IMG/VR virus record: IMGVR_UViG_3300009174_000005
Length of the DNA: 64,000 nucleotides
Direction: 5' to 3' (one strand)
Source: an uncultured virus (IMG/VR IMGVR_UViG_3300009174_000005)
Lineage: Duplodnaviria; Heunggongvirae; Uroviricota; Caudoviricetes
Part shown: in pieces, positions 4,738 to 24,786 of the stretch
Numbering within the stretch: the first letter of the stretch is position 1
How the letters are laid out: the number at the start of each line of letters is the position of its first letter
Notes under the pieces: generated by a model
What the model saw: only the letters and a program-made list of their open reading frames with translations
The model's database searches: none
What the model was told of the DNA's origin: nothing
Made by a program: the position numbers and the translations under genes

Positions 4738-5676
4738 ATGGGTCTAGTTAAATCAACCGCACCCGCTACGTTAGCACGTTCAACTGTAGACTATGCTACT
4801 AAACCCTCGCCTGAATCAATGTTTCCAGGCTCAGACTTCTACACGCTATCAGAACCTAAACTACAGACCAATTGCCTGATAGCTGGCGAGTCTGGTTGCG
4901 GTAAGACCTCATTCGTTACGTTATTCTGTCCTGCGCCCATCGCAATGATAAATTTTGACCGTCGCGCAAGCGATGCCGTATACCGCGCTGAACAATCTGG
5001 TAAACGCATTCTCTACGCGGATGTCGCCTATCCGCACAATGCAATGGAACTAGACGACAAAGAATCCATGCGCGTAGGCGAAGCGTGCGTAGGAAAAGTA
5101 GTGCGCAACCTAGAATACGCTGTTAAAGAATCTATAGCAGGTAATATCCGTACTATATGTCTGGACACTGGTACGGAATTAGGTGAGATTATCAACATGG
5201 CAACAGCAGGTCGTCCGGATAAGTCAAAATACGGCGATAGAGGCAAATCAAAAGATCTAGCAAATAGACAGTGGGGAGGGATTTACGATCTCGTGCGTGA
5301 TGGACTAGCACATTTTGTGGTTCTATCCAGAGCTAAGGAAATCTGGATAGACGATAAAGGCACAGGCAGATACACTTACAGAGGCTCGCCCGCGATGTTT
5401 GAAGGTGTTGAGTGGGCAGGTGTGCTGAAAGCAGAGAAAACATCTACACTGCGATTAGGTGGAGGACTGGTATTAGGGGGTGCAAATGCAACACCCGCAG
5501 ATGGAAAGATTGTTAGATCTATTCATATGATTAAAGCAGGTGTTAACGGCGGCGAATTAGGACAAACATACACAGAGGCACAGTGGGAAGGTTTCGGCGG
5601 GCCATTTGCGTTTTGCGCAATGATGCAATACATGGGCAGATTCCCTGGTAGCAGCCCAGAGGACTGGTTGAAATGA
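4738..5676 (+). CDS. AAA/RecA-like ATPase (Sak4-like recombinase)
   Basis: Walker A GESGCGKT; Walker B ICLDT; recombination-module context. Confidence 0.7.
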   Translation: MGLVKSTAPATLARSTVDYATKPSPESMFPGSDFYTLSEPKLQTNCLIAGESGCGKTSFVTLFCPAPIAMINFDRRASDAVYRAEQSGKRILYADVAYPHNAMELDDKESMRVGEACVGKVVRNLEYAVKESIAGNIRTICLDTGTELGEIINMATAGRPDKSKYGDRGKSKDLANRQWGGIYDLVRDGLAHFVVLSRAKEIWIDDKGTGRYTYRGSPAMFEGVEWAGVLKAEKTSTLRLGGGLVLGGANATPADGKIVRSIHMIKAGVNGGELGQTYTEAQWEGFGGPFAFCAMMQYMGRFPGSSPEDWLK

Positions 5677-6170
5677 TAATAACGAATGAAGACACAACAC
5701 ATTTATTCGATCCTAGTTTGCCCCCTATAACAGCCTTTAGAGATGAATTTAGATTCTTGTCTAACTTCTGGTCTGCTGAAGTAGACTGGTATAGCTGTGG
5801 TGCTAATCATACGTACTCTACCGTTGAACACGCATATCAAGCTGCTAAGACAGATGACGAAGCACAGCGAGAATTGATTCAATATGCTAATACCCCGGGG
5901 ATAGCTAAGAGAATAGGACGTACAGTGCATATACGCGAAGGGTGGGAAGAGCAAAAATTAGTTGTAATGAGTCTATTACTAATCCAAAAATTTCTTAACC
6001 ACGTAGAGCTAGGCAAGAAATTAAGTAATACAGGTAAGCGTTTACTGGTTGAAGGTAATACATGGGGGGACACTTTTTGGGGTGTAGACGTACGCACTGG
6101 AAAAGGGCAGAATAACCTAGGCGTATCTCTCATGGAAACTAGAATAGAGGTAGTACGATGCAAGTATTAG
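5673..6170 (+). CDS. NADAR family N-glycosidase (YbiA-like)
   Basis: FLSNFW, TVEHAYQAAK, LVEGNTWGDTFWGV, GQNNLG motifs. Confidence 0.92.
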   Translation: MIITNEDTTHLFDPSLPPITAFRDEFRFLSNFWSAEVDWYSCGANHTYSTVEHAYQAAKTDDEAQRELIQYANTPGIAKRIGRTVHIREGWEEQKLVVMSLLLIQKFLNHVELGKKLSNTGKRLLVEGNTWGDTFWGVDVRTGKGQNNLGVSLMETRIEVVRCKY

Positions 6171-6448
6171 ATACCTTTGCACTAGCCGATAAAATAATTG
6201 ACCTTTTAGAAGTAGAAATAACCTGTGAACTTGACGGTGGCAAAGAACCGACAATAGCGTGGGATAAATTAACAGTAGACCACTATACAGATTTACCACA
6301 GACGATTACAAGTCTAGATGAAGACACCCGCTTGATAATCGCAGAGCATATAGAGTATGCCGAGCCTACGGTAGGTATTGATATTCCTAAGAGCTTGCGG
6401 TATAAACTTGAAGCACTAATCAAGGAAGTTTTACATGGGCACGGATAA
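6158..6448 (+). CDS. hypothetical protein
   Basis: GAGGT SD; operon packing. Confidence 0.55.
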   Translation: MQVLDTFALADKIIDLLEVEITCELDGGKEPTIAWDKLTVDHYTDLPQTITSLDEDTRLIIAEHIEYAEPTVGIDIPKSLRYKLEALIKEVLHGHG

Positions 6449-7298
6449 CACACCTACCGTGCTTGTATCCAATGCCGCTGGTAGCAAAGATCTAGTCTTG
6501 TACCCACCGCTAGATACATATGGAGCACTTTGCAACTTACCCTCTACCGATGTATCATTTGTAGGTAATGGACCAGACGGACCACTATTAATAGGTGTGG
6601 AGGTTAAATCACTATCCGACTTGCTATCATCTGTTGATTGCGGTCGATTACAAGCTACGCAAATACCTAAACTCTTAGAATCGCATAATATCTGCTGGCT
6701 TTTAATATACGGCGAATATCGCTGTACCTCAGACGGCAAGTTAGAAGAGTACAAACTAGTAAATAAATCAAAGATATCTCCCACGGTGCGTCCATACTAC
6801 AAATGGTGTCCTGTGACAGTAGGCCAGCGACGCGAAGTACCTTACGGTTATCTGGTTTCATTTTTAACAGGGATAACAGATTTAGGAATTCATTACGATC
6901 ATGTACACGATATAGCTGAATCTGCACAGTGGATAGGTGCACTAGCTAGAAGATGGAATAAACCCTATAACGCGCATGCTTCATTTCGTACTTTCGATAG
7001 ATCTCGCTCGTCTATGCCCCTACGTCCAGATCTCTCTAGGGATACTTTAGCTGATGCTGCTGTCTACGCTGCTCTCCCTGGTATCGGATGGGACCGGGCC
7101 ATCTCCCTAGCGCAAGCATTCTCGTGTGTAGACGCGTTCGTGGCAGCTACCCCCTCTAGTCTTGCCGAGGTAACTACGGTGTCTTCTAACGGCCGTACAA
7201 CGCGCCTAGGACCGGTTCTAGCGAGTAGTCTGCATTCAATGCTTCATCGCGGCACGCCTAACACACCTGCAAACAGCCTCTCTAAAAAATCTCCCTAA
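6435..7298 (+). CDS. ERCC4/XPF-type nuclease with HhH
   Basis: D...IGVEVKSLSDLLSS...GRL..Q; C-terminal LPGIG HhH. Confidence 0.8.
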   Translation: MGTDNTPTVLVSNAAGSKDLVLYPPLDTYGALCNLPSTDVSFVGNGPDGPLLIGVEVKSLSDLLSSVDCGRLQATQIPKLLESHNICWLLIYGEYRCTSDGKLEEYKLVNKSKISPTVRPYYKWCPVTVGQRREVPYGYLVSFLTGITDLGIHYDHVHDIAESAQWIGALARRWNKPYNAHASFRTFDRSRSSMPLRPDLSRDTLADAAVYAALPGIGWDRAISLAQAFSCVDAFVAATPSSLAEVTTVSSNGRTTRLGPVLASSLHSMLHRGTPNTPANSLSKKSP

Positions 7299-7315
7299 AA
7301 AGTAGTCTACAGATG

Positions 7316-7344
7316 TTGACATCAGCCATCTACCCGCGTATACT
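7316..7344 (+). promoter_or_regulatory. sigma70-type promoter
   Basis: TTGACA-N17-TATACT. Confidence 0.8.
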
Positions 7345-7406
7345 TTCTTCCGATGTTGGCGGATAGACCGCTACACATAGATTGTCACTAAGGAAGGAAG
7401 CTACCA

Positions 7407-8009
7407 ATGGCCGTTAAGAAGACTACTCCTGACGTTACAGAAGCGAGTGCTACCCCTGTCACTGCTGACCAAGGTTCCACCGTCCAGACTGCACACGTTG
7501 ACGCTGTAGACGCGTCCACCGCTACCCCTGCTACTGACACTCCTATCGTCCCTAAGCGTGGACGTGGACGTGCCAAGGGGTCTACCAACGACACCTTGAA
7601 GTGGTCTATGGAGATGAAGGCTGCACTCGCCACGCTGGTAGCTGGCAACCCGGGCGCTTTGTCAGCTTCAGACGTGGCAGCTAAGCTAGCAGACGATCCG
7701 GTATTCTCCTCTCTAGTTGTTCATAACACTGAGACTGGCGAGACTGACAGTCTGTTAACCAGTCAGCACGTTATCTCACAAGTTGCTAATCTTAATCGTC
7801 CTGCGCTAGTACGTGTCAAGGACGCTGCTGGAAAGTGGCAAATTAGCAAGGACGCAGATGGTAAGCCCGTAATCGAAGCCGAAGGTCTAGGGCTCGTACT
7901 GCTGAAGCCTGCCGGTAAGACTGCTGGAGCAAAGCCGTCGCGTGCTGCCATGCTTGAGGGGCTGCGTAAGATGCTAGGCAATAAGGCCGGTGAAGAGGTA
8001 GCAGCGTAA
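7407..8009 (+). CDS. putative DNA-binding protein (AT-hook-like plus HTH-like)
   Basis: KRGRGRAKGS motif; strong promoter and AAGGAAGG SD. Confidence 0.55.
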   Translation: MAVKKTTPDVTEASATPVTADQGSTVQTAHVDAVDASTATPATDTPIVPKRGRGRAKGSTNDTLKWSMEMKAALATLVAGNPGALSASDVAAKLADDPVFSSLVVHNTETGETDSLLTSQHVISQVANLNRPALVRVKDAAGKWQISKDADGKPVIEAEGLGLVLLKPAGKTAGAKPSRAAMLEGLRKMLGNKAGEEVAA

Positions 8010-8024
8010 GTTTAAACAATTAAA

Positions 8025-8107
8025 CGCAACGTGGCGAAATTGGTATACGCGATAGACTCAAAATCTATTCCTTTGGGTTAAGGGTTCGAATCCCTTCGTT
8101 GCGACCA
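8025..8107 (+). tRNA. tRNA-Leu (CAA)
   Basis: acceptor CGCAACG/CGTTGCG; anticodon arm ATAGA-CTCAAAA-TCTAT; GTTCGAATC T-loop; encoded CCA. Confidence 0.92.
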
Positions 8108-8121
8108 ATATACAGTGTTTG

Positions 8122-8280
8122 AAGCAACGTGATTACACAGCGGACAAGGTTAAGACAAGCTTACGATAAAGTACGCGGGAGACACAAAGACCATTCTAGG
8201 TGCCGTGTCGCTAATACCGTGAAATACGTAAGCCTAATTCTAGTAGGAAGGCGAGTGACTGACCAGTAATCACGTTGCTT
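8122..8280 (+). ncRNA. unassigned structured RNA candidate A
   Basis: 15-bp perfect closing stem plus nested stems; non-coding gap after tRNA-Leu. Confidence 0.6.
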
Positions 8281-8310
8281 TTATATTAACGAAAGAAAGG
8301 AACACAAGAA

Positions 8311-8928
8311 ATGGATGCTACCTATAGTTCAATCTTTGAAGCAATCTTAGCACGGGCTAGTGGCCTTATGTACGTTATTCCTAATCAAGGTGCACGTGGC
8401 TATCCTATGCCGTCTAACACATCAGACGAATACATCACTTCTACTCTGTATCATCAATTAGGCGCAATCGGCGGTGCTGTAGGAGAGCCGCAGTCAGATG
8501 ACCTAACCCTAGTGTTCGTACGACACCCGTCGAACCCTCTAGGCATTATCAACAATACTGAATATCCCAGAGTTACTACGCAAGACCATACAGCACTAGA
8601 GTATATGATTGTAAACGGCCGTCCTGCTTACCTGTCTGTTATTCGTGCAGGCAACGATGCTTTGAATCTCTCCCCTAATATCCACGTGACGCGTACTCCA
8701 GGCGCACCGGATGAAGGCCATATTAATGATCCTAACGCGGCCGCTGAAGCTGAGGGTAAGCTTGTAGCTGATTTGCTTAATATCATTACCCATCTGGGTG
8801 AGATGTCCACGCTACAAGCGGACGGGAGCGGTGGATGGGAACCTGTGAAGATTAATCAATCTGCACAGTGGCACGCGTTGAAAGTTGCACAGTATTTCAA
8901 GAATCCGTTTGACACGAGAGGTGATTAA
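8311..8928 (+). CDS. hypothetical protein
   Basis: 205 aa; AAAGGA SD; family not recognised. Confidence 0.7.
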   Translation: MDATYSSIFEAILARASGLMYVIPNQGARGYPMPSNTSDEYITSTLYHQLGAIGGAVGEPQSDDLTLVFVRHPSNPLGIINNTEYPRVTTQDHTALEYMIVNGRPAYLSVIRAGNDALNLSPNIHVTRTPGAPDEGHINDPNAAAEAEGKLVADLLNIITHLGEMSTLQADGSGGWEPVKINQSAQWHALKVAQYFKNPFDTRGD

Positions 8929-8932
8929 CGCT

Positions 8933-9142
8933 ATGTTACCAGGACTACAAATCGGACGAATTATCCATTACGTTAGCCCCTACAACAATGAACACCAAGC
9001 TGGTATTATCACAGGTACACACGGTGACACTAGCGAAGTTACTTTTACGCTGTTTGCTTCTGATGGTACGTACTCGGGTGAAACTGCTGTGTATGACGCT
9101 AATTGTGCAGTAGGAACGTGGCACTGGCCAGAGCGTTCGTAA
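8933..9142 (+). CDS. conserved small phage protein (GRIIHY...GTWHWPER type)
   Basis: motif common in phage small proteins; GAGGTG SD before ATG 8933. Confidence 0.7.
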   Translation: MLPGLQIGRIIHYVSPYNNEHQAGIITGTHGDTSEVTFTLFASDGTYSGETAVYDANCAVGTWHWPERS

Positions 9143-9151
9143 GGTTTATAG

Positions 9152-9229
9152 TCGCCCGTAGCTCAGCGGTAAGTCAGCGCCGATCTTATAAATCGGAGGT
9201 CGGTGGTTCAACTCCACCCGGGCGAACCA
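9152..9229 (+). tRNA. tRNA-Ile (UAU)
   Basis: acceptor TCGCCCG/CGGGCGA; anticodon arm CCGAT-CTTATAA-ATCGG; GTTCAACTC T-loop; discriminator A; CCA. Confidence 0.88.
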
Positions 9230-9238
9230 TAAATAAAA

Positions 9239-9489
9239 CAGAGTAAGTATGCAGGTTTAAATACCTTTCCATTTACTCTGTGTATTAGCTACGGCCGTTA
9301 GCGTTATTTGAAAAATAAGGTAGCAGGCTTATTTCAATCTGCCGGACGTAATTGAATATAAGTTAAGCTACCAACGGCAAGTTATGCATCCGGTATGCAT
9401 ACGAGTTACGCACGGGGAGAGACCACGGGACGACTGGCCTAGCTAGCTAGTTACTTGTGGTACCCGTGCGTTGCTATTTGTACCAAATA
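9239..9489 (+). ncRNA. unassigned structured RNA candidate B (three-way junction plus kissing loop)
   Basis: multiple nested complementary stems in a non-coding gap between tRNA-Ile and thyX. Confidence 0.6.
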
Positions 9490-9519
9490 TTTAACTCTTA
9501 ATGAAAGGCAGGCAGACCA

Positions 9520-10347
9520 TTGACTAGTGAACGCGTTACAATATTAGACCATGGGTACGTACAGCTGATAGAATCGTGGGGTAGTGACGAGCGGATTATT
9601 GAAGCGGCACGGATGAGCACAGGGAAAGGATTCTTGGGGTGGGGTCACGCTGTGGAGTGCAAAGAATGCAATGGGAAGGGTTGGCATCATGGAGACTGTC
9701 ACCCTAGAGAAACTTGCGGCGTATGTAATGGTGATAAATGGGTTAAAACAACTGGAGACGAAAAACTCCTCCGTTATCTCTACGAACACAAACACGCTAC
9801 ACCCTTTGAAATGGCAGGTTTAATAATAGAAGTACAAGCACCTATCTTTGTCTTCCGTGAGTGGCATAGACATCGTACGCAATCATATAATGAAATGAGT
9901 GCACGCTATGCCCCGCTACCTGACCTCAATTACATTCCTACTGTAGAACGTCTACTTATCAATAGCAAGTCAAACAAGCAAGCCGGAACGATTAAAGGCG
10001 CTGAGGAGCTTACCGAAGAGAAGGCACTCGTTTTTCGAGCCGCGCTATCATCAATCTATGACTACCAGGAGAAAGTATATCAAACCGCTCTATCTATGGG
10101 CGTCCCAAAAGAACTAGCCCGTATCCACTTACCTGTAGGTCGCTACTCCCGTATGCGTGCTTCTGCCAACCTTCGCAATTGGCTTGCATTTCTAACTCTA
10201 CGCATGGATTCAGCTGCACAGTGGGAAATCCGCCAATACGCTAATCAAGTAGGTGTAATCATATCTCAATTATTCCCTCGCACGTGGGAGTTATTAGATG
10301 ACAGTGTCAATCATCCCACCTGTTATACAAGACTTGCAAAAGGCTAA
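9520..10347 (+). CDS. thyX: FAD-dependent thymidylate synthase with zinc-finger insertion
   Basis: HATPFE, REWHRHR, SYNEMSARY, LRMDSAAQWEIR motifs. Confidence 0.95.
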   Translation: MTSERVTILDHGYVQLIESWGSDERIIEAARMSTGKGFLGWGHAVECKECNGKGWHHGDCHPRETCGVCNGDKWVKTTGDEKLLRYLYEHKHATPFEMAGLIIEVQAPIFVFREWHRHRTQSYNEMSARYAPLPDLNYIPTVERLLINSKSNKQAGTIKGAEELTEEKALVFRAALSSIYDYQEKVYQTALSMGVPKELARIHLPVGRYSRMRASANLRNWLAFLTLRMDSAAQWEIRQYANQVGVIISQLFPRTWELLDDSVNHPTCYTRLAKG

Positions 10348-10398
10348 ATGGTATATCGAACGTGAGATCGAACGATTGGAAAGGTAGACACGTGTAAC

Positions 10399-10602
10399 AT
10401 GGAAGTGTACAAATCAGGTACCCGTGTTAAAGTCAACGGTGACACATTTGCAACTGTAGTAGGCCACTGGCTAGAGTACGATACCTTGCAATATCGTGTA
10501 GTATGGTGGCACAACGGCGAACGCAAGCTAGAGTGGGTATACGATTGTGAGATTGACGAATTAGACCACACAGAGCGAATTGATCTAGGGTTCCGTGTAT
10601 GA
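10399..10602 (+). CDS. small SH3-like hypothetical protein
   Basis: AAGGT SD; ATGA overlap with polymerase. Confidence 0.6.
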   Translation: MEVYKSGTRVKVNGDTFATVVGHWLEYDTLQYRVVWWHNGERKLEWVYDCEIDELDHTERIDLGFRV

Positions 10603-13406
10603 ACGTAGTCTACGGCGCAGGTCACCTCCCTAACGATGTATTCTTAATAGGTGAAGCCCCTGGAGCACAAGAATTCAAAGAGGGAGAACCTTTCGTAGGT
10701 CGTTCCGGTCGCGAGCAAGACACCTACCTATCTAGATTCAACCTACGCACTAGACAATTCTACCGTACTAACTTGTGCAAAGAGTACATAGCAGGGAATC
10801 CAGATCCTACGCCAGAGCAAATTGACTATTGGCAGTCTGAATTATTCGATGAACTTTGCAAATGTCAGCCTAAAATAATCATAGCTGTAGGTCGATACGC
10901 CGCTAGGTACTTTCTAGGAGATTCAACTCTTCTAGATATTGTGCACGGACTACCACATATTGTTTCTCCCTCGTGTCCTGCCGCTAGTTATCTACGCTCT
11001 GATTGCATCATATTACCTATCTTCCACCCTGCTGGAGGATTTTACGACTCAGACGCTAGAGCTGTAATCGCGTGGGATTATGAACAGGTAGCCTATTACA
11101 CTGATCTTATAAAACGTTCTATCTCTATCACACCACGCACAGACCCATTTCTAGGAATAGAAGATTACCGCGAGATCTCACCTTATGATCTAGGTGACGT
11201 GCTACCGCTAGATTCTACACATTTCGCCATTGATACAGAAGGTACTCCCAGCGATCCTTTCAGTCTGCAAGTCTCCTGTGCACCTGGTACCGGCTACACT
11301 TTATTATACGATCATGTAGACTTCTCCATCGCTATAGCTTATTTACAATGCCTAGTAGATAACGGTTGCATAGTAATCTTCCACAATGGCCTATACGATA
11401 TCGAGATGTTGCGCGTAATGGGTTTAAACCTACGCCGCGCAAAGTTCATTGATACCATGTACATGTTATACCTGTTACGTATAGAGCCACAAGGTTTAAA
11501 AGAAGCTGCATACCGCTGGTGTAATATTCGCATGACATCACACAAGGAGACAATAGAACCATTAGGTACTAAACGTCAAATTGAATACCTGCAAGCTGTA
11601 ATCGATCGCTCGGCAGAATGGCCTATCCCTCCGCCTAGAATAGTTATTCAGAACGATGGCACCCCCAAGGTTAAAAAACCTAAGCATGTATCATCACGTG
11701 CTGCCTACACTCTCCGCAATTTCTTGGCTGGTAAAGTAGATAACAAAGGCCGGCCTACCGATCTAGTTAAGTGGTGGAATAATAAAGTATCTAGAGAATT
11801 ACGTAGGCCAGTAGAGCAAGCACTAGGTAAGATTCCATACGGATCTATCAGAGCACTGTACGCTGTAGACGCTAAAGCAGCTATTGACTATTCCTCTAGA
11901 GACCCTGATGCTACCTTACGCTTATACCTACGACTGTCAGACGAGCTATCGCGCCGTGGGCTATCTACTCCTGGCAAACGTCTAACAGATTTACTCTCTA
12001 CAGGTATGGAAGTACTACCAGTATTCGAAGAGATGCAATCTACGGGCATGCCGTGTGATTTATCCCGTTTGCATTCATTAGGCGAAGAGATGCAATCAGG
12101 TATGTACCGTATAGGATCTGAATTATCATTTAAATACTTTGACAATAAACCGTTCAACCCTAATTCGCCCAAACAAACACAGTCTCTATTAAAAAAACGC
12201 GGCTTAGAAGGATCGCAGTTAACCCCTAGCGGCGAGATGTCTACAGGCAAGAAATCAATTGAAGGGTTGCGATTCGTCGACCCTGCTATTGCGTCATTAT
12301 TTGATTGGCGAGAGCACTCACACACCAAAACAGCGTTTATCAATCCTGTATTTGCGTCGTTACCTTATGAATATGCAGGCAATACATCTGATACTGACAC
12401 GGACACTGACACAGACGACGATGATACAGACGCAAACGATACAGAAGATATTTCAATTATACCAGCTGAGTTACAACCGTCTAATCTATGGCGTGTTAGG
12501 TGTCAGATTAAAAACACTCGCACGGCTACCAGACGTCCGGCGGCAGAAGCACCTAATCTATTAGCGCAACCCAAGCATAGCGTATATGGTCGTAAATTAC
12601 GTGCATGTTACAGAGCGCCAAAAGGTAAGATTTTATACGCAGCTGACTATTCGCAGATTGAAGCTAGACTATTAGCCCATGAAACCGCTGATCCATTCTT
12701 GTGTGAACTATTCAACACTCGCGGTGCAGACGGTAAGCCTCGTGACATACACACTGAAACCGCTTCTATTATATTCGGCGTACCTCTAGACCAAGTTGAC
12801 AAAGACACACAACGTACACCAGCCAAACGCGCGTGCTTTGGAATCATCTATGGTATAGGCGGTAGATCCCTATACGATCAATTGCGTATGATGGGGATTC
12901 AAGGCTGGAGCGTAGACAGGTGCAATGAACTAATATACGAGTGGCTGAAACTTTATAAAGGTGTCGATTCATACATTAGGCGTGTATCCAGTAACGTACG
13001 TAGACGTTCAAACGTTCCGCCAAATGAAGACGGGTATGCAACGGTATATGATTGTTGGGGTATGCCTAGGTCTTTACCCGGCATATGGAGTGAAGATGCT
13101 AAAATAGCCGCTGAAGCTGGGCGTCATGCTGTATCTCACAAGATTCAAGGTGGCGCACAAGGAATGATTCAAAACGCTATGTCTGCTTTAAAGTATGACG
13201 TGTTAGATTGGCAGGACTATAACATGGATATTCAATGGTTGATTGAAATTCACGATGAACTTGATTTTGAAATGGACGAGGATATACTGCCCATTGTCGA
13301 GCCTGTGATACTGCACAAGATGAAAACGTGTCATGGGATGAATAACATGCGAGTGCCTGTAGAAGTGGAAGGTAAGGCCAGTATAACGTGGGGTGGGAAG
13401 GAGTAG
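10599..13406 (+). CDS. polA: family A DNA polymerase with N-terminal uracil-DNA-glycosylase domain and 3'-5' exonuclease
   Basis: UDG GEAPG..E...FVGRSG and HPA; exo DTE, HNGLYD, YSSRD; pol motifs ADYSQIEAR, KRACFGIIYG, IHDEL. Confidence 0.93.
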   Translation: MNVVYGAGHLPNDVFLIGEAPGAQEFKEGEPFVGRSGREQDTYLSRFNLRTRQFYRTNLCKEYIAGNPDPTPEQIDYWQSELFDELCKCQPKIIIAVGRYAARYFLGDSTLLDIVHGLPHIVSPSCPAASYLRSDCIILPIFHPAGGFYDSDARAVIAWDYEQVAYYTDLIKRSISITPRTDPFLGIEDYREISPYDLGDVLPLDSTHFAIDTEGTPSDPFSLQVSCAPGTGYTLLYDHVDFSIAIAYLQCLVDNGCIVIFHNGLYDIEMLRVMGLNLRRAKFIDTMYMLYLLRIEPQGLKEAAYRWCNIRMTSHKETIEPLGTKRQIEYLQAVIDRSAEWPIPPPRIVIQNDGTPKVKKPKHVSSRAAYTLRNFLAGKVDNKGRPTDLVKWWNNKVSRELRRPVEQALGKIPYGSIRALYAVDAKAAIDYSSRDPDATLRLYLRLSDELSRRGLSTPGKRLTDLLSTGMEVLPVFEEMQSTGMPCDLSRLHSLGEEMQSGMYRIGSELSFKYFDNKPFNPNSPKQTQSLLKKRGLEGSQLTPSGEMSTGKKSIEGLRFVDPAIASLFDWREHSHTKTAFINPVFASLPYEYAGNTSDTDTDTDTDDDDTDANDTEDISIIPAELQPSNLWRVRCQIKNTRTATRRPAAEAPNLLAQPKHSVYGRKLRACYRAPKGKILYAADYSQIEARLLAHETADPFLCELFNTRGADGKPRDIHTETASIIFGVPLDQVDKDTQRTPAKRACFGIIYGIGGRSLYDQLRMMGIQGWSVDRCNELIYEWLKLYKGVDSYIRRVSSNVRRRSNVPPNEDGYATVYDCWGMPRSLPGIWSEDAKIAAEAGRHAVSHKIQGGAQGMIQNAMSALKYDVLDWQDYNMDIQWLIEIHDELDFEMDEDILPIVEPVILHKMKTCHGMNNMRVPVEVEGKASITWGGKE

Positions 13407-23126: not shown

Positions 23127-23657
23127 AGCGTAATCAACCTCCCAACCCTGTGTTCCAACACGCTTATCCCTATATACTCTCTATGCTTGTATCCCATACT
23201 CTAGCCGTTTATCCGTCTCCACCACAAACAGCGATACACTAGACATGTACATAGCTACATTTGAATATATCTCACAAGACAAAAATGGATATCTTAACTA
23301 CAGCGGTAGTAGATATCTATAACCTTGGAGTTATATACGCATACCTCGCAAGTCAAAAACAACCACCTTACCTATTTCGGAATTTACGCCTCTGTTACGA
23401 CTTATAGCATATAGCACAAGTGTAATAGACAAGAAGGTTGCCACCTCACTTGTCTGCTAGATTTTTGAAATGACTTGGTATGGCAGAGGTTTAAAGATAA
23501 GACTGAAAGGTAAGTATAGGCTATTTGTCTAGTTGTATGTGGGAATAAGGTTAAGCGCTGTGTTCGAGGGTGGAATATGTCGTATGTGGGTGTAGCATAG
23601 GGAAAGATGGAAAGTGTCACCCGTAGAGGACATTTGTAAAGTCTTGCACTAAGGTAC

Positions 23658-23686
23658 TTGACACGCCAGAATAGGTAGCGTACTAT
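23658..23686 (+). promoter_or_regulatory. sigma70-type leaderless promoter
   Basis: TTGACA-N17-TACTAT; ATG 23693 six nt later. Confidence 0.8.
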
Positions 23687-23972
23687 GCTCCTATGAAAAC
23701 CAAAGAGAACGTAGTGCCTGTACATGACCCGGTAAAGAGTGGAAAAAGCTACCGGATACACTGCGAAATAAACCCGGTCGCACTGACGCGTCTCTAGTCC
23801 TTATTAACGGTGTACATGAGCAAGTTACTTTCGTGTGCATTCATGGTAAGCTAGAAAAAACTCAGTGCGCAGCTTGTGAAACTATTGAGGCGGGCACATG
23901 AGTAAAAGCAATCGTGCGCTGATATGTCTAAAATGATTAAAGATGCTTTGAAACAAGTAATGAGGTTGGATA

Positions 23973-24786
23973 ATGAGCTACGAACATCTCCTACCGATAG
24001 AGGTTGATGGAAAGCCCGTATTCTATCTGGATCTATCTGCGATTCCATATTATAGCGCTATACGTAGAGCACAGTTACACAGTTGCGAGATGCAACAGGC
24101 TAGGCATGTCTTAGCACACATGACTTTATTGTGCTTATTACCTGAACGAGCAAGAACGTGAGCTAGCTTGATTAACTTGCACCAGCCAATAAGGAAGTAA
24201 ACATGTACGTAGACGATAAAACAGCTTGGGACAACGCGGTATACGCTTGGCGTCAATACTTACAAGCTAAAGAACAACACGGGCGGGACACGCCAGAAGC
24301 GTACGAATGTTACCATATATACGAAAGTGCTGTAGACAGTCTTAAACCAGGTTATGCAACTCCTTATGAGGTAAGCTGCGGAGCGGATTAACCATGCTTA
24401 TCGAAATTGATTCCGAATACCGTCAAACAATTAAAGAAGGTGATTTTCTAGTTCTCACTGATAAAGGTTTTGTACGTAGAGCTACTAATCATCAAGTATA
24501 CACTAACAAACGCGCGGTAGTAGGTGTGGCAGTGGAAGACGAATTCGTATTTGGGTGCAGGCGTACGGCTAACGTGGAGATGTATTAAATGGGCACAACA
24601 CAGAAGGACTCACTCTCACGTCGCATAGCGGCTTATGAAACTCGCTTTGATTCTAAGGATCGTAATTCAGGTTTATGGACTCTACTAGCCCATGCGAGGC
24701 AAGAATGGTCTCATGGTTGCTTTGATATTTGCGCGTGTGATCTGGATGAAATTGATTTAATGTTGGCGCTTAAGGCTAGTGCGTGA
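23973..24786 (+). other. four abutting 62-65 aa hypothetical ORFs (23973, 24203, 24394, 24589)
   Basis: each has an SD-like element; no recognisable family. Confidence 0.55.

Follow-up and report, generated by a model that had tools for sequence, protein, structure and literature searches.

The gap between tRNA-Ile and thyX

The subject of this analysis is a non-coding gap of 290 nucleotides (nt) that separates a tRNA-Ile gene from the thymidylate synthase gene thyX in a 64,000-nt stretch of DNA from an uncultivated tailed phage (IMG/VR record IMGVR_UViG_3300009174_000005); we refer to this whole stretch as the window, and to the structured RNA predicted in the gap as the element. By the folding models used here, the gap is an exceptional and genuine cluster of RNA helices and the most structured stretch of the phage. 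Our favoured, still tentative, reading is that the gap is transcribed as a trailer of tRNA-Ile, rich in hairpins, and is at the same time the 5' leader of thyX; it would serve as punctuation of a polycistronic phage transcript. The element begins 1 nt after tRNA-Ile on the same (+) strand, and the features from this tRNA to thyX are the following:

9152-9229, + strand: tRNA-Ile with the anticodon UAU and an encoded CCA at 9227-9229 (ARAGORN; Rfam RF00005, 59.8 bits)
9230-9519, + strand: the 290-nt gap under study, between tRNA-Ile and thyX
9230-9237, + strand: single-stranded linker of 8 nt consisting only of A and U (TAAATAAA; probability of being unpaired 0.94, falling to 0.86 when the tRNA is part of the fold)
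9238-9281, + strand: hairpin H1, with an outer stem 9239-9248/9271-9280 and an inner stem 9253-9256/9263-9266 (pair probability 0.98)
9294-9299/9373-9378, + strand: Pa, GCCGTT/AACGGC, of the three-way junction (pair probability 0.85)
9304-9309/9313-9318, + strand: Pb, TTATTT/AAATAA, of the three-way junction (pair probability 0.62)
9319-9324/9367-9372, + strand: Pc, GGTAGC/GCTACC, of the three-way junction (pair probability 0.99)
9326-9338/9351-9364, + strand: extension of Pc (pair probability 0.95-0.96)
9339-9350, + strand: apical loop of Pc, containing UGCCGGA at 9340-9346 (GCCGGA at 9341-9346)
9384-9388/9396-9400, + strand: small kissing hairpin, ATGCA/TGCAT, with the loop UCCGGUA at 9389-9395
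9408-9416/9463-9471, + strand: basal segment of the long arm, ACGCACGGG/CCCGTGCGT
9422-9429/9454-9461, + strand: middle segment of the long arm, including ACCAC 9422-9426/GTGGT 9457-9461
9432-9438/9446-9452, + strand: top segment of the long arm
9472-9481, + strand: U-rich tail directly 3' of the long arm (TGCTATTTGT; 6 U of 10)
9504-9522, + strand: ribosome-binding region of thyX (AAAGGCAGGC) with its TTG start codon (probability of the binding region being unpaired 0.53-0.59)
9520-10347, + strand: thyX (open reading frame; Pfam Thy1, 6.6e-41)

The pair probabilities of helices are means in the full-length ensemble. Every helix and complementarity that an initial annotation had listed for this region was found at its place when the sequence was read.

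Fold strength and architecture of the element

The longest stop-to-stop frame inside the gap spans 40 amino acids (aa), on which ground a small protein was dropped as an explanation. Folded as + strand RNA (9230-9520), the gap reaches a minimum free energy (MFE) of -91.9 kcal/mol (z -4.59), a value equalled by none of 200 dinucleotide shuffles. When all 250-nt segments of the + strand, taken in 25-nt steps, are ranked by energy regressed on G+C, the one at 9226-9475 is the first of 2551, at -4.16 standard deviations. The reverse complement of the gap gives -79.6 kcal/mol (z -2.43), and the better folding of the + strand is what would be expected for a feature that acts at the level of RNA. This strand asymmetry bears on a rival explanation, namely that the block has no function as RNA: it might be hairpin-rich filler or the scar left when the tRNA and thyX cassettes entered a hypervariable spot of the genome, or it might act as a DNA site for protein binding or recombination. 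We consider this rather unlikely. Besides the clear superiority of the + strand, it is disfavoured by the four G-U pairs in the upper two segments of the long arm, since these pairs would turn into mismatches in the opposite strand and likewise in a DNA cruciform. On its side stand the many short palindromes of the region, among them TATGCAT, which is found twice, 11 bp apart, and which could be a binding site in DNA.

The significance of the fold comes mainly from two long hairpins: H1 (9236-9286; z -4.70, with 1 of 200 shuffles as good) and the long arm (9403-9475; -36.7 kcal/mol, z -5.04, with 0 of 200 as good), whose three helical segments across 9408-9471 have pair probabilities of 0.97-0.99. 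The junction plus the small hairpin (9283-9402) taken alone yields z -2.07, with 9 of 200 shuffles as good; here the MFE selects a different fold and only the centroid contains the junction. In the full-length calculation the three-way junction (9294-9378) appears in both the MFE structure and the centroid. The concentration of significance in discrete long hairpins, and not in the junction, suits hairpins with a role in stability or processing. Thus, of the structured RNA with a junction and a kissing loop that was originally proposed, the hairpin-rich fold is exceptional, and the two named parts are its weakest: the three-way junction is plausible in the folding models and the kissing contact is hypothetical.

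The complementarity underlying this contact is present and one pair longer than first described: UGCCGGA (9340-9346) matches UCCGGUA (9389-9395) over 7 contiguous base pairs, four of them G-C. When the letters of the loops are shuffled, at least six pairs with at least four G-C arise for this pair of loops in 1.2% of 5000 trials (P 0.012), and for any pair of loops in 1.8%; these values are conditional on the assumed secondary structure, and the match is built on the palindrome CCGG. A second match of 6 nt links UAGCUA in the 5' strand of the junction (within 9283-9293) with the apical loop of the long arm.

These complementarities are the core of a second rival explanation, namely that the element is a dedicated compact non-coding RNA (ncRNA), trans-acting or possibly a ribozyme, released from the tRNA-Ile transcript and organized around a three-way-junction core locked by the kissing contact. 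In its favour, the junction helices have probabilities of 0.62-0.99 in the full-length ensemble, there are two candidate tertiary contacts, and stable hairpins lie at both ends, as in an exonuclease-resistant design. Against it, the junction domain is marginal by itself, the kissing hairpin has a pair probability of only 0.23 in the full-length, pseudoknot-free ensemble, and both candidate contacts rest on short palindromes (CCGG and AGCT), which produce more chance matches. We hold such an RNA to be unlikely, and retain it as an alternative since the junction and the possible tertiary contact are otherwise unexplained.

Gene order around the element

The wider neighborhood has the following order, thyX lying between the features already given and the last two entries:

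6435-7298, + strand: ERCC4-like nuclease gene (from local gene order)
Between the ERCC4-like nuclease gene and tRNA-Leu: an open reading frame (ORF) of 200 aa
8025-8107, + strand: tRNA-Leu with the anticodon CAA and an encoded CCA (ARAGORN, Rfam), at the head of a parallel unit
Between tRNA-Leu and the ORF 8311-8928: a gap of 203 nt
8108-8287, + strand: E2, the structured block in this second gap, with a 7-nt A/U-rich linker (8108-8114) followed by a multi-branched fold of about 170 nt with a 16-bp closing stem
8311-8928 and 8885/8934-9142: ORFs between the 203-nt gap and tRNA-Ile
Between thyX and polA: an ORF of 67 aa
10599-13406, + strand: polA, encoding a fusion of UDG, exonuclease and PolA

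Downstream, the window has matches to terminase, portal, head and tail families. The ORFs of at least 80 aa with a Pfam or PHROG match are all on the + strand and tightly packed, which makes co-transcription plausible. Gaps of at least 100 nt between + strand ORFs number only 16 in the 64 kb; since phage genomes are compact, 290 useless nt would be unusual, and this too speaks against a block devoid of RNA function. A terminator scan of the + strand over 7300-10700, which permits only loops of 3-8 nt, called no site. On visual inspection, U-rich stretches follow both the long arm (TGCTATTTGT; 6 U of 10) and the closing stem of E2 (TTTTATATT; 7 U of 9); the latter looks like a terminator, and the tail behind the long arm would be a weak terminator at most. 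The sole promoter-like site near tRNA-Ile ends on the first base of the tRNA and cannot serve it, and no promoter was found between the element and thyX. As for the tRNA itself, its anticodon UAU is an uncommon one.

The 3.3 kb between the ERCC4-like nuclease gene and polA (7299-10598) consist of the two tRNAs, two structured gaps, thyX and small ORFs. In those polA relatives that share both flanking genes, the two are adjacent or split only by small ORFs, and the space between them holds no such RNA. From this closeness of the nuclease gene and polA in the relatives, we read the 3.3-kb block of the window as a lineage-specific insert in a variable insertion spot. The restriction of the element to such an insert, together with its being single-copy and an orphan, is what leads us to give a non-functional or DNA-level origin a place among the alternatives. 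No second copy of the element was found in the window. With respect to a DNA site, no iterons or tandem repeats were found in the gap and the minimum of the cumulative GC skew lies near 22-24 kb, away from it; a replication origin at the gap was dropped on these two grounds.

A second structured block behind tRNA-Leu

The two tRNAs have a layout in common: an encoded CCA, an A/U linker, a structured block, and then the ribosome-binding site of the next gene. E2 folds with -52.6 kcal/mol (z -3.42; 1 of 200 shuffles as good). Its closing stem (8121-8136/8266-8281) is followed by the terminator-like TTTTATATT, and a weaker outer helix of 6 bp (8115-8120/8300-8305) extends to the ribosome-binding region of the next gene. 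Since a comparable block precedes an unrelated gene after tRNA-Leu, the feature appears, on the sequence evidence, to track the tRNAs and not thyX.

The closing stem of E2 copies the acceptor stem of tRNA-Leu, with 6 of 7 base pairs identical (8123-8129/8273-8279), which was reached in none of 300 shuffles. Likewise, the 3' strand of E2 is complementary to the 5' leader plus the acceptor strand of tRNA-Leu over 13 nt with one mismatch (P 0.003). This copying of both acceptor strands could point to duplication or recombination around tRNA genes, and to that extent favours an origin of the blocks as inserted DNA. In the element behind tRNA-Ile, 5 of 7 acceptor pairs recur at the base of the long arm (9408-9414/9465-9471; P 0.023), and the stem of the non-cognate tRNA-Leu scores the same 5 of 7 there (P 0.053). 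Among the flanks of 15 other distinct phage tRNAs parsed as a control, 5 of 30 reach 5 of 7 pairs and none reaches 6. Acceptor-stem copying hence holds for E2 and is not clearly seen for the tRNA-Ile element.

Local alignment of E2 with the tRNA-Ile element detects no similarity above shuffles (P 0.61); the set of local alignments that pairs the element against E2 and against the gap 2396-2580 contains nothing above shuffles either (P 0.61, 0.77, 0.33). RNAduplex comparison of the whole tRNA with the whole element gives long, loopy duplexes that are no better than those of shuffles. The non-coding gap 2396-2580 also folds strongly in its own right (z -3.43; 0 of 200 shuffles): it contains a 15-bp hairpin (2418-2487) that starts with GGTAGCA and ends with TGCTACC, so that its basal pairs are those of the Pc arm. 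Across the window there are 11 copies of the word AGGTAGCA, where 2.6 would be expected; 0 of 100 shuffles reach this count, and most of the copies lie in coding sequence.

Known RNA families and ribozymes

At the gathering score, a search of the window with the 4227 models of Rfam 15 passes only the two tRNAs. With permissive filters and E-values up to 10, the region 8900-9800 yields an antisense-of-tRNA match below its cut-off and three rows with E-values of 2.3-8.9; over the whole window at E-values up to 1 there is nothing further. In none of these searches was a riboswitch, leader, RtT or hepatitis delta virus (HDV)-type family matched. ARAGORN, in its standard and intron-permitting modes, finds only the same two tRNAs and no other tRNA or tmRNA; its lowered-threshold and mitochondrial modes give scattered spurious calls, one of which falls in the gap (9290-9351, mitochondrial mode), where the Rfam tRNA model has no match at E-values up to 10. 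The element therefore appears, by these models, to belong to no described RNA family, in agreement with the initial annotation, which had recognized none; the lack of a family that accounts for it is compatible with a dedicated ncRNA. The antisense-of-tRNA match is that of the Rfam Plastid-ycf2 5'UTR model, which scores 48.1 bits on the - strand of tRNA-Ile (9152-9227; cut-off 65.7): this is an artefact, the model apparently resembling an antisense tRNA.

A ribozyme had also been suggested. Phages do have ribozymes next to tRNAs, the theta ribozymes (PMC10879173), and this precedent lends the idea of a catalytic RNA some appeal. We therefore consider the fit of an HDV-like core. A lax descriptor of the fold, run from -5 to +12 of each tRNA end, finds 10 overlapping candidates after tRNA-Ile (shuffled mean 2.3; 4 of 100 shuffles reach 10) and none after tRNA-Leu. 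All ten use H1 as P1, need a G-U-rich P2 and disrupt the Pc arm with its probability of 0.99; their P1 strands open with A or C at 9238-9240, which is 9-11 nt past the end of the tRNA, and there is no cleavage-site G. Hence the element was not classed as an HDV-like or theta ribozyme. The ribozyme suggestion is thus left unsupported: no ribozyme family matches, and the candidates that the descriptor returns are weak ones based on H1 that do not have the defining features. This equally counts against the catalytic form of a dedicated ncRNA.

Search for relatives

One virus record (G001) shares 94% of the sampled words of the window and is 100% identical over positions 2-461 of the query 9100-9560. 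Over 3460 bases this near-identical record departs from the window at a single one (window position 9100), and it is thus uninformative on constraint; among the sequences searched, it appears to carry the only other copy of the element. Otherwise the phage is an orphan, the best non-self PolA in a set of 5.8 billion clustered proteins having 47% identity. The sole sequencing run in which the stretch was found is a DNA run from a rhizosphere metagenome, which is possibly its source.

Several kinds of search converge on this picture. An exact 30-mer of the junction arm has 0 matches in IMG/VR. A 'distant' blastn search with 9100-9560 against 50,697 phage records retrieves one record, for the tRNA part only, and blastn with 9230-9519 against 72,556 plasmid records retrieves no match. 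The corresponding search with 8000-8330 finds 31 phage records, and the 10 matches listed cover the tRNA-Leu part only. We fetched 45 loci around thyX relatives (37-70% identity) and 79 around PolA relatives identified by alignment. A search of the gap with nhmmer across 130 loci (45 of thyX, 79 of polA, 5 of tRNAs, and the near-identical L001) returns only L001, so that none of the 124 thyX- and polA-related loci has a homolog. Similarly, a covariance model of the junction plus the small hairpin (R1; 119 nt, built from one sequence), scanned over 100 sources with 1,075,283 bases (the window, 79 of 79 polA loci, 16 of 45 thyX loci and 4 tRNA loci), matches only the window itself. A gapped pattern of the two kissing loops has 0 matches in IMG/VR and 15 in prokaryote genomes, where a few to a dozen are estimated to be expected by chance; the best R1 score over 18 loci from pattern scans is 11.3 bits (E 0.17).

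Probes from the neighbors of the element behave alike. Single-protein scans of IMG/VR find no relatives of the 205-aa upstream protein or of polA, and polA has none in JGI metagenomes. A 25-mer of tRNA-Ile has 0 matches in IMG/VR, and a 22-mer of its anticodon arm matches three metagenome contigs, all of them tRNA arrays without the element. In one of these arrays, the tRNA with this anticodon arm (L131, 1473-1550) has tRNA-Thr 2 nt behind it and no trailer element. No divergent homologs, as an analysis of covariation would require, were found among the sequences reached. This dearth of homologs in the related loci, in the 1.07 Mb scanned with R1 and in the phage and plasmid records is a further mark against a dedicated ncRNA.

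The thyX loci bear directly on a third rival, a thyX-specific cis-regulator, that is, a riboswitch or protein-binding leader that tunes the expression of thymidylate synthase, which the initial annotation had offered as an option. Its attraction is that the element is directly upstream of thyX, with no promoter between them, and that the leader so formed is long and structured. Among the thyX relatives, however, similar sequence is carried by 0 of 45 loci (nhmmer), a tRNA stands directly upstream of thyX in 0 of 45, and in 29 of the 41 evaluable loci thyX is less than 60 nt from, or overlaps, an upstream ORF of at least 80 aa (two loci had no upstream sequence). That thyX relatives have no element, and most of them almost no leader, argues against a conserved thyX regulator; judging from these comparisons, the element does not travel with thyX. 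Moreover, no riboswitch or leader family matches, and the comparable block behind tRNA-Leu stands before an unrelated gene. The ribosome-binding region of thyX is also not clearly sequestered: as it is predicted to be about half open (0.53-0.59), no on/off translational switch is apparent in the folding models. We accordingly regard a regulator dedicated to thyX as highly doubtful.

ThyX itself has an observation of its own: residues of about 49-77 (9664-9750) form an insert rich in cysteine; it has two CxxC pairs and additional Cys and His, and in sequence it looks like a zinc-ribbon. A search peptide taken from this insert was among the patterns that retrieved relatives.

A proposed tRNA trailer in processing and message stability

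The reading that we tentatively prefer places the element within a single message. With no credible promoter or strong terminator in between, tRNA-Ile would be embedded in a longer transcript, an mRNA that takes in the upstream small genes, then tRNA-Ile and the element, and finally thyX and polA. Host tRNA-processing enzymes would excise tRNA-Ile from it, and excision of a tRNA from within an mRNA would sever the message. In RNase E-type processing, an unpaired stretch of only A and U is the expected place of the cut behind an encoded CCA. The 3' cut would accordingly fall in the unpaired A/U linker at 9230-9237, a putative endonuclease entry site, leaving a new 5' end 0-8 nt before H1. A base-paired 5' end guards bacterial mRNAs against 5'-end-dependent decay, and H1 would in this manner shield the thyX-polA message from it.

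At the other end, the long arm with its weak U-rich tail could be a 3' stabiliser or a leaky terminator, and perhaps a site for a double-strand-specific RNase. It is comparable to the intercistronic processing hairpins or 3'-stabiliser hairpins of phage transcripts. Its base is G+C-rich and its U-rich tail poor, so that part of the transcription could end there, and the arm would then set how much transcription or message goes on into thyX. As a by-product, a structured RNA of about 240 nt may build up, much like the RNAs of the T4 tRNA region. The initial annotation had also proposed release by tRNA processing: the layout fits this, with an unpaired 8-nt A/U linker between the CCA and the first hairpin and a recurrence of the same arrangement after tRNA-Leu, and the cleavage itself is what we infer.

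Three considerations weigh against this interpretation. Firstly, one hairpin suffices as a 5' stabiliser, and five to six helices, a junction and a loop-loop match exceed that role. Secondly, the U-rich tail is poor, which makes the terminator part weak. Thirdly, the element is one sequence, in which selection on structure is not separable from an accident of inserted DNA.

Comparison with known systems

The nearest known kind of RNA that the element resembles is, by analogy, a structured RNA directly behind a tRNA gene that is freed or exposed by tRNA processing; this kind is known and poorly understood. There are four points of comparison: the T4 RNAs. The accounts cited describe RNAC and RNAD as products of the T4 tRNA region with no known role (PMC3014915; PMC9697503). 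These are likewise encoded by a phage beside tRNA genes and on the same strand. The present element differs in that no sequence or Rfam relation to them was found, and in being predicted from sequence, abutting a protein gene and possibly being a leader. The tRNA-linked repeats (TLRs; RtT RNA) and 3'ETS-leuZ of Escherichia coli. According to the source cited (PMC8144298), the glyW-cysT-leuZ transcript gives rise to the 3'ETS small RNA through RNase E processing, and the hallmark of TLRs is 18-19 nt at their 3' end that are identical to the tRNA 3' end. Here, too, structured RNA stands directly behind a tRNA, and in E. coli it is freed by processing. The TLR hallmark is absent in the phage: between tRNA-Ile and the element no direct repeat is better than 9 nt with one mismatch (P 0.66), and E2 has only 6 nt in common with the 3' strand of tRNA-Leu.

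The theta ribozymes. These minimal HDV-like ribozymes sit directly 3' of phage tRNAs and are proposed to process the tRNA 3' end; the cleavage-site G opens their P1 and lies no more than 5 nt from the end of the tRNA, only 4.5% of the associated tRNAs encode CCA, and more than 80% come from gut phages (PMC10879173). The likeness is that a structured RNA follows a phage tRNA immediately on its 3' side. Unlike them, the window has an encoded CCA, and the first helix comes 9-10 nt later and begins with C or A.

The 5'-stabiliser and RNase III intercistronic hairpins. The sites of the T7 early region are an example of such long irregular hairpins between the genes of a unidirectional phage transcript, which is also the situation seen here; a stable stem near a processed 5' end is a further likeness, the 5' end being in this case a predicted one. 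These known hairpins are single, whereas the gap strings together five to six helices including a junction.

The surroundings of phage tRNA genes are rarely examined, such genes usually being discussed as tools of codon usage or anti-defence. If both blocks are modules of processing and stability, they show how tRNAs can be seated within a phage mRNA while the message behind them is preserved. As free RNAs, they would add to a small unexplained set made up of RNAC and RNAD of T4 and the tRNA-linked repeats of E. coli. A bolder variant would make the element a new class of compact phage ncRNA, with a kissing-loop-locked junction and protective hairpins, released by excision of tRNA-Ile and forming with the acceptor-stem-copying E2 part of a broader, as yet undescribed practice, in phages and in microbes with small genomes, of appending structured RNAs to tRNA genes. 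We think this quite unlikely; were it true, RNAs attached to tRNAs might be decoys or guides for host enzymes that process or target tRNAs. The value of the locus is that of a well-defined candidate from one sequence, with exact helices and mutable loops, and not of an established discovery.

Additional observations on the window and related loci

In two of the thyX relatives, L041 (2041-3267) and L044 (1885-3477), the tblastn match is in two segments 480-770 nt apart: in the former it breaks at query residue 121/122, and in the latter the segments overlap (residues 1-121 and 103-261). The sequence suggests an intron, an intein or an inserted gene. For the window locus, a split thyX or an intron was dropped, the N-terminus of ThyX aligning with relatives from residues 1-6. 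Many PolA relatives are comparably split, by insertions of 0.5-1.1 kb (L058 at 6001-9820, L062, L068, L080, L084, L086, L093, L095). The insert in L058 contains a homolog (53% identity) of a free-standing gene of the window at 5673-6170 (phrog_1017, of unknown function), and hence this gene may be mobile.

The largest stretch of the window without a + strand ORF of at least 50 aa is 23127-23972, and the region remains ORF-poor up to about 24780. Around 23127-24780 the G+C falls to 0.37, and the minimum of the GC skew noted above lies close by; 23127-23972 is thus a candidate origin or regulatory region.

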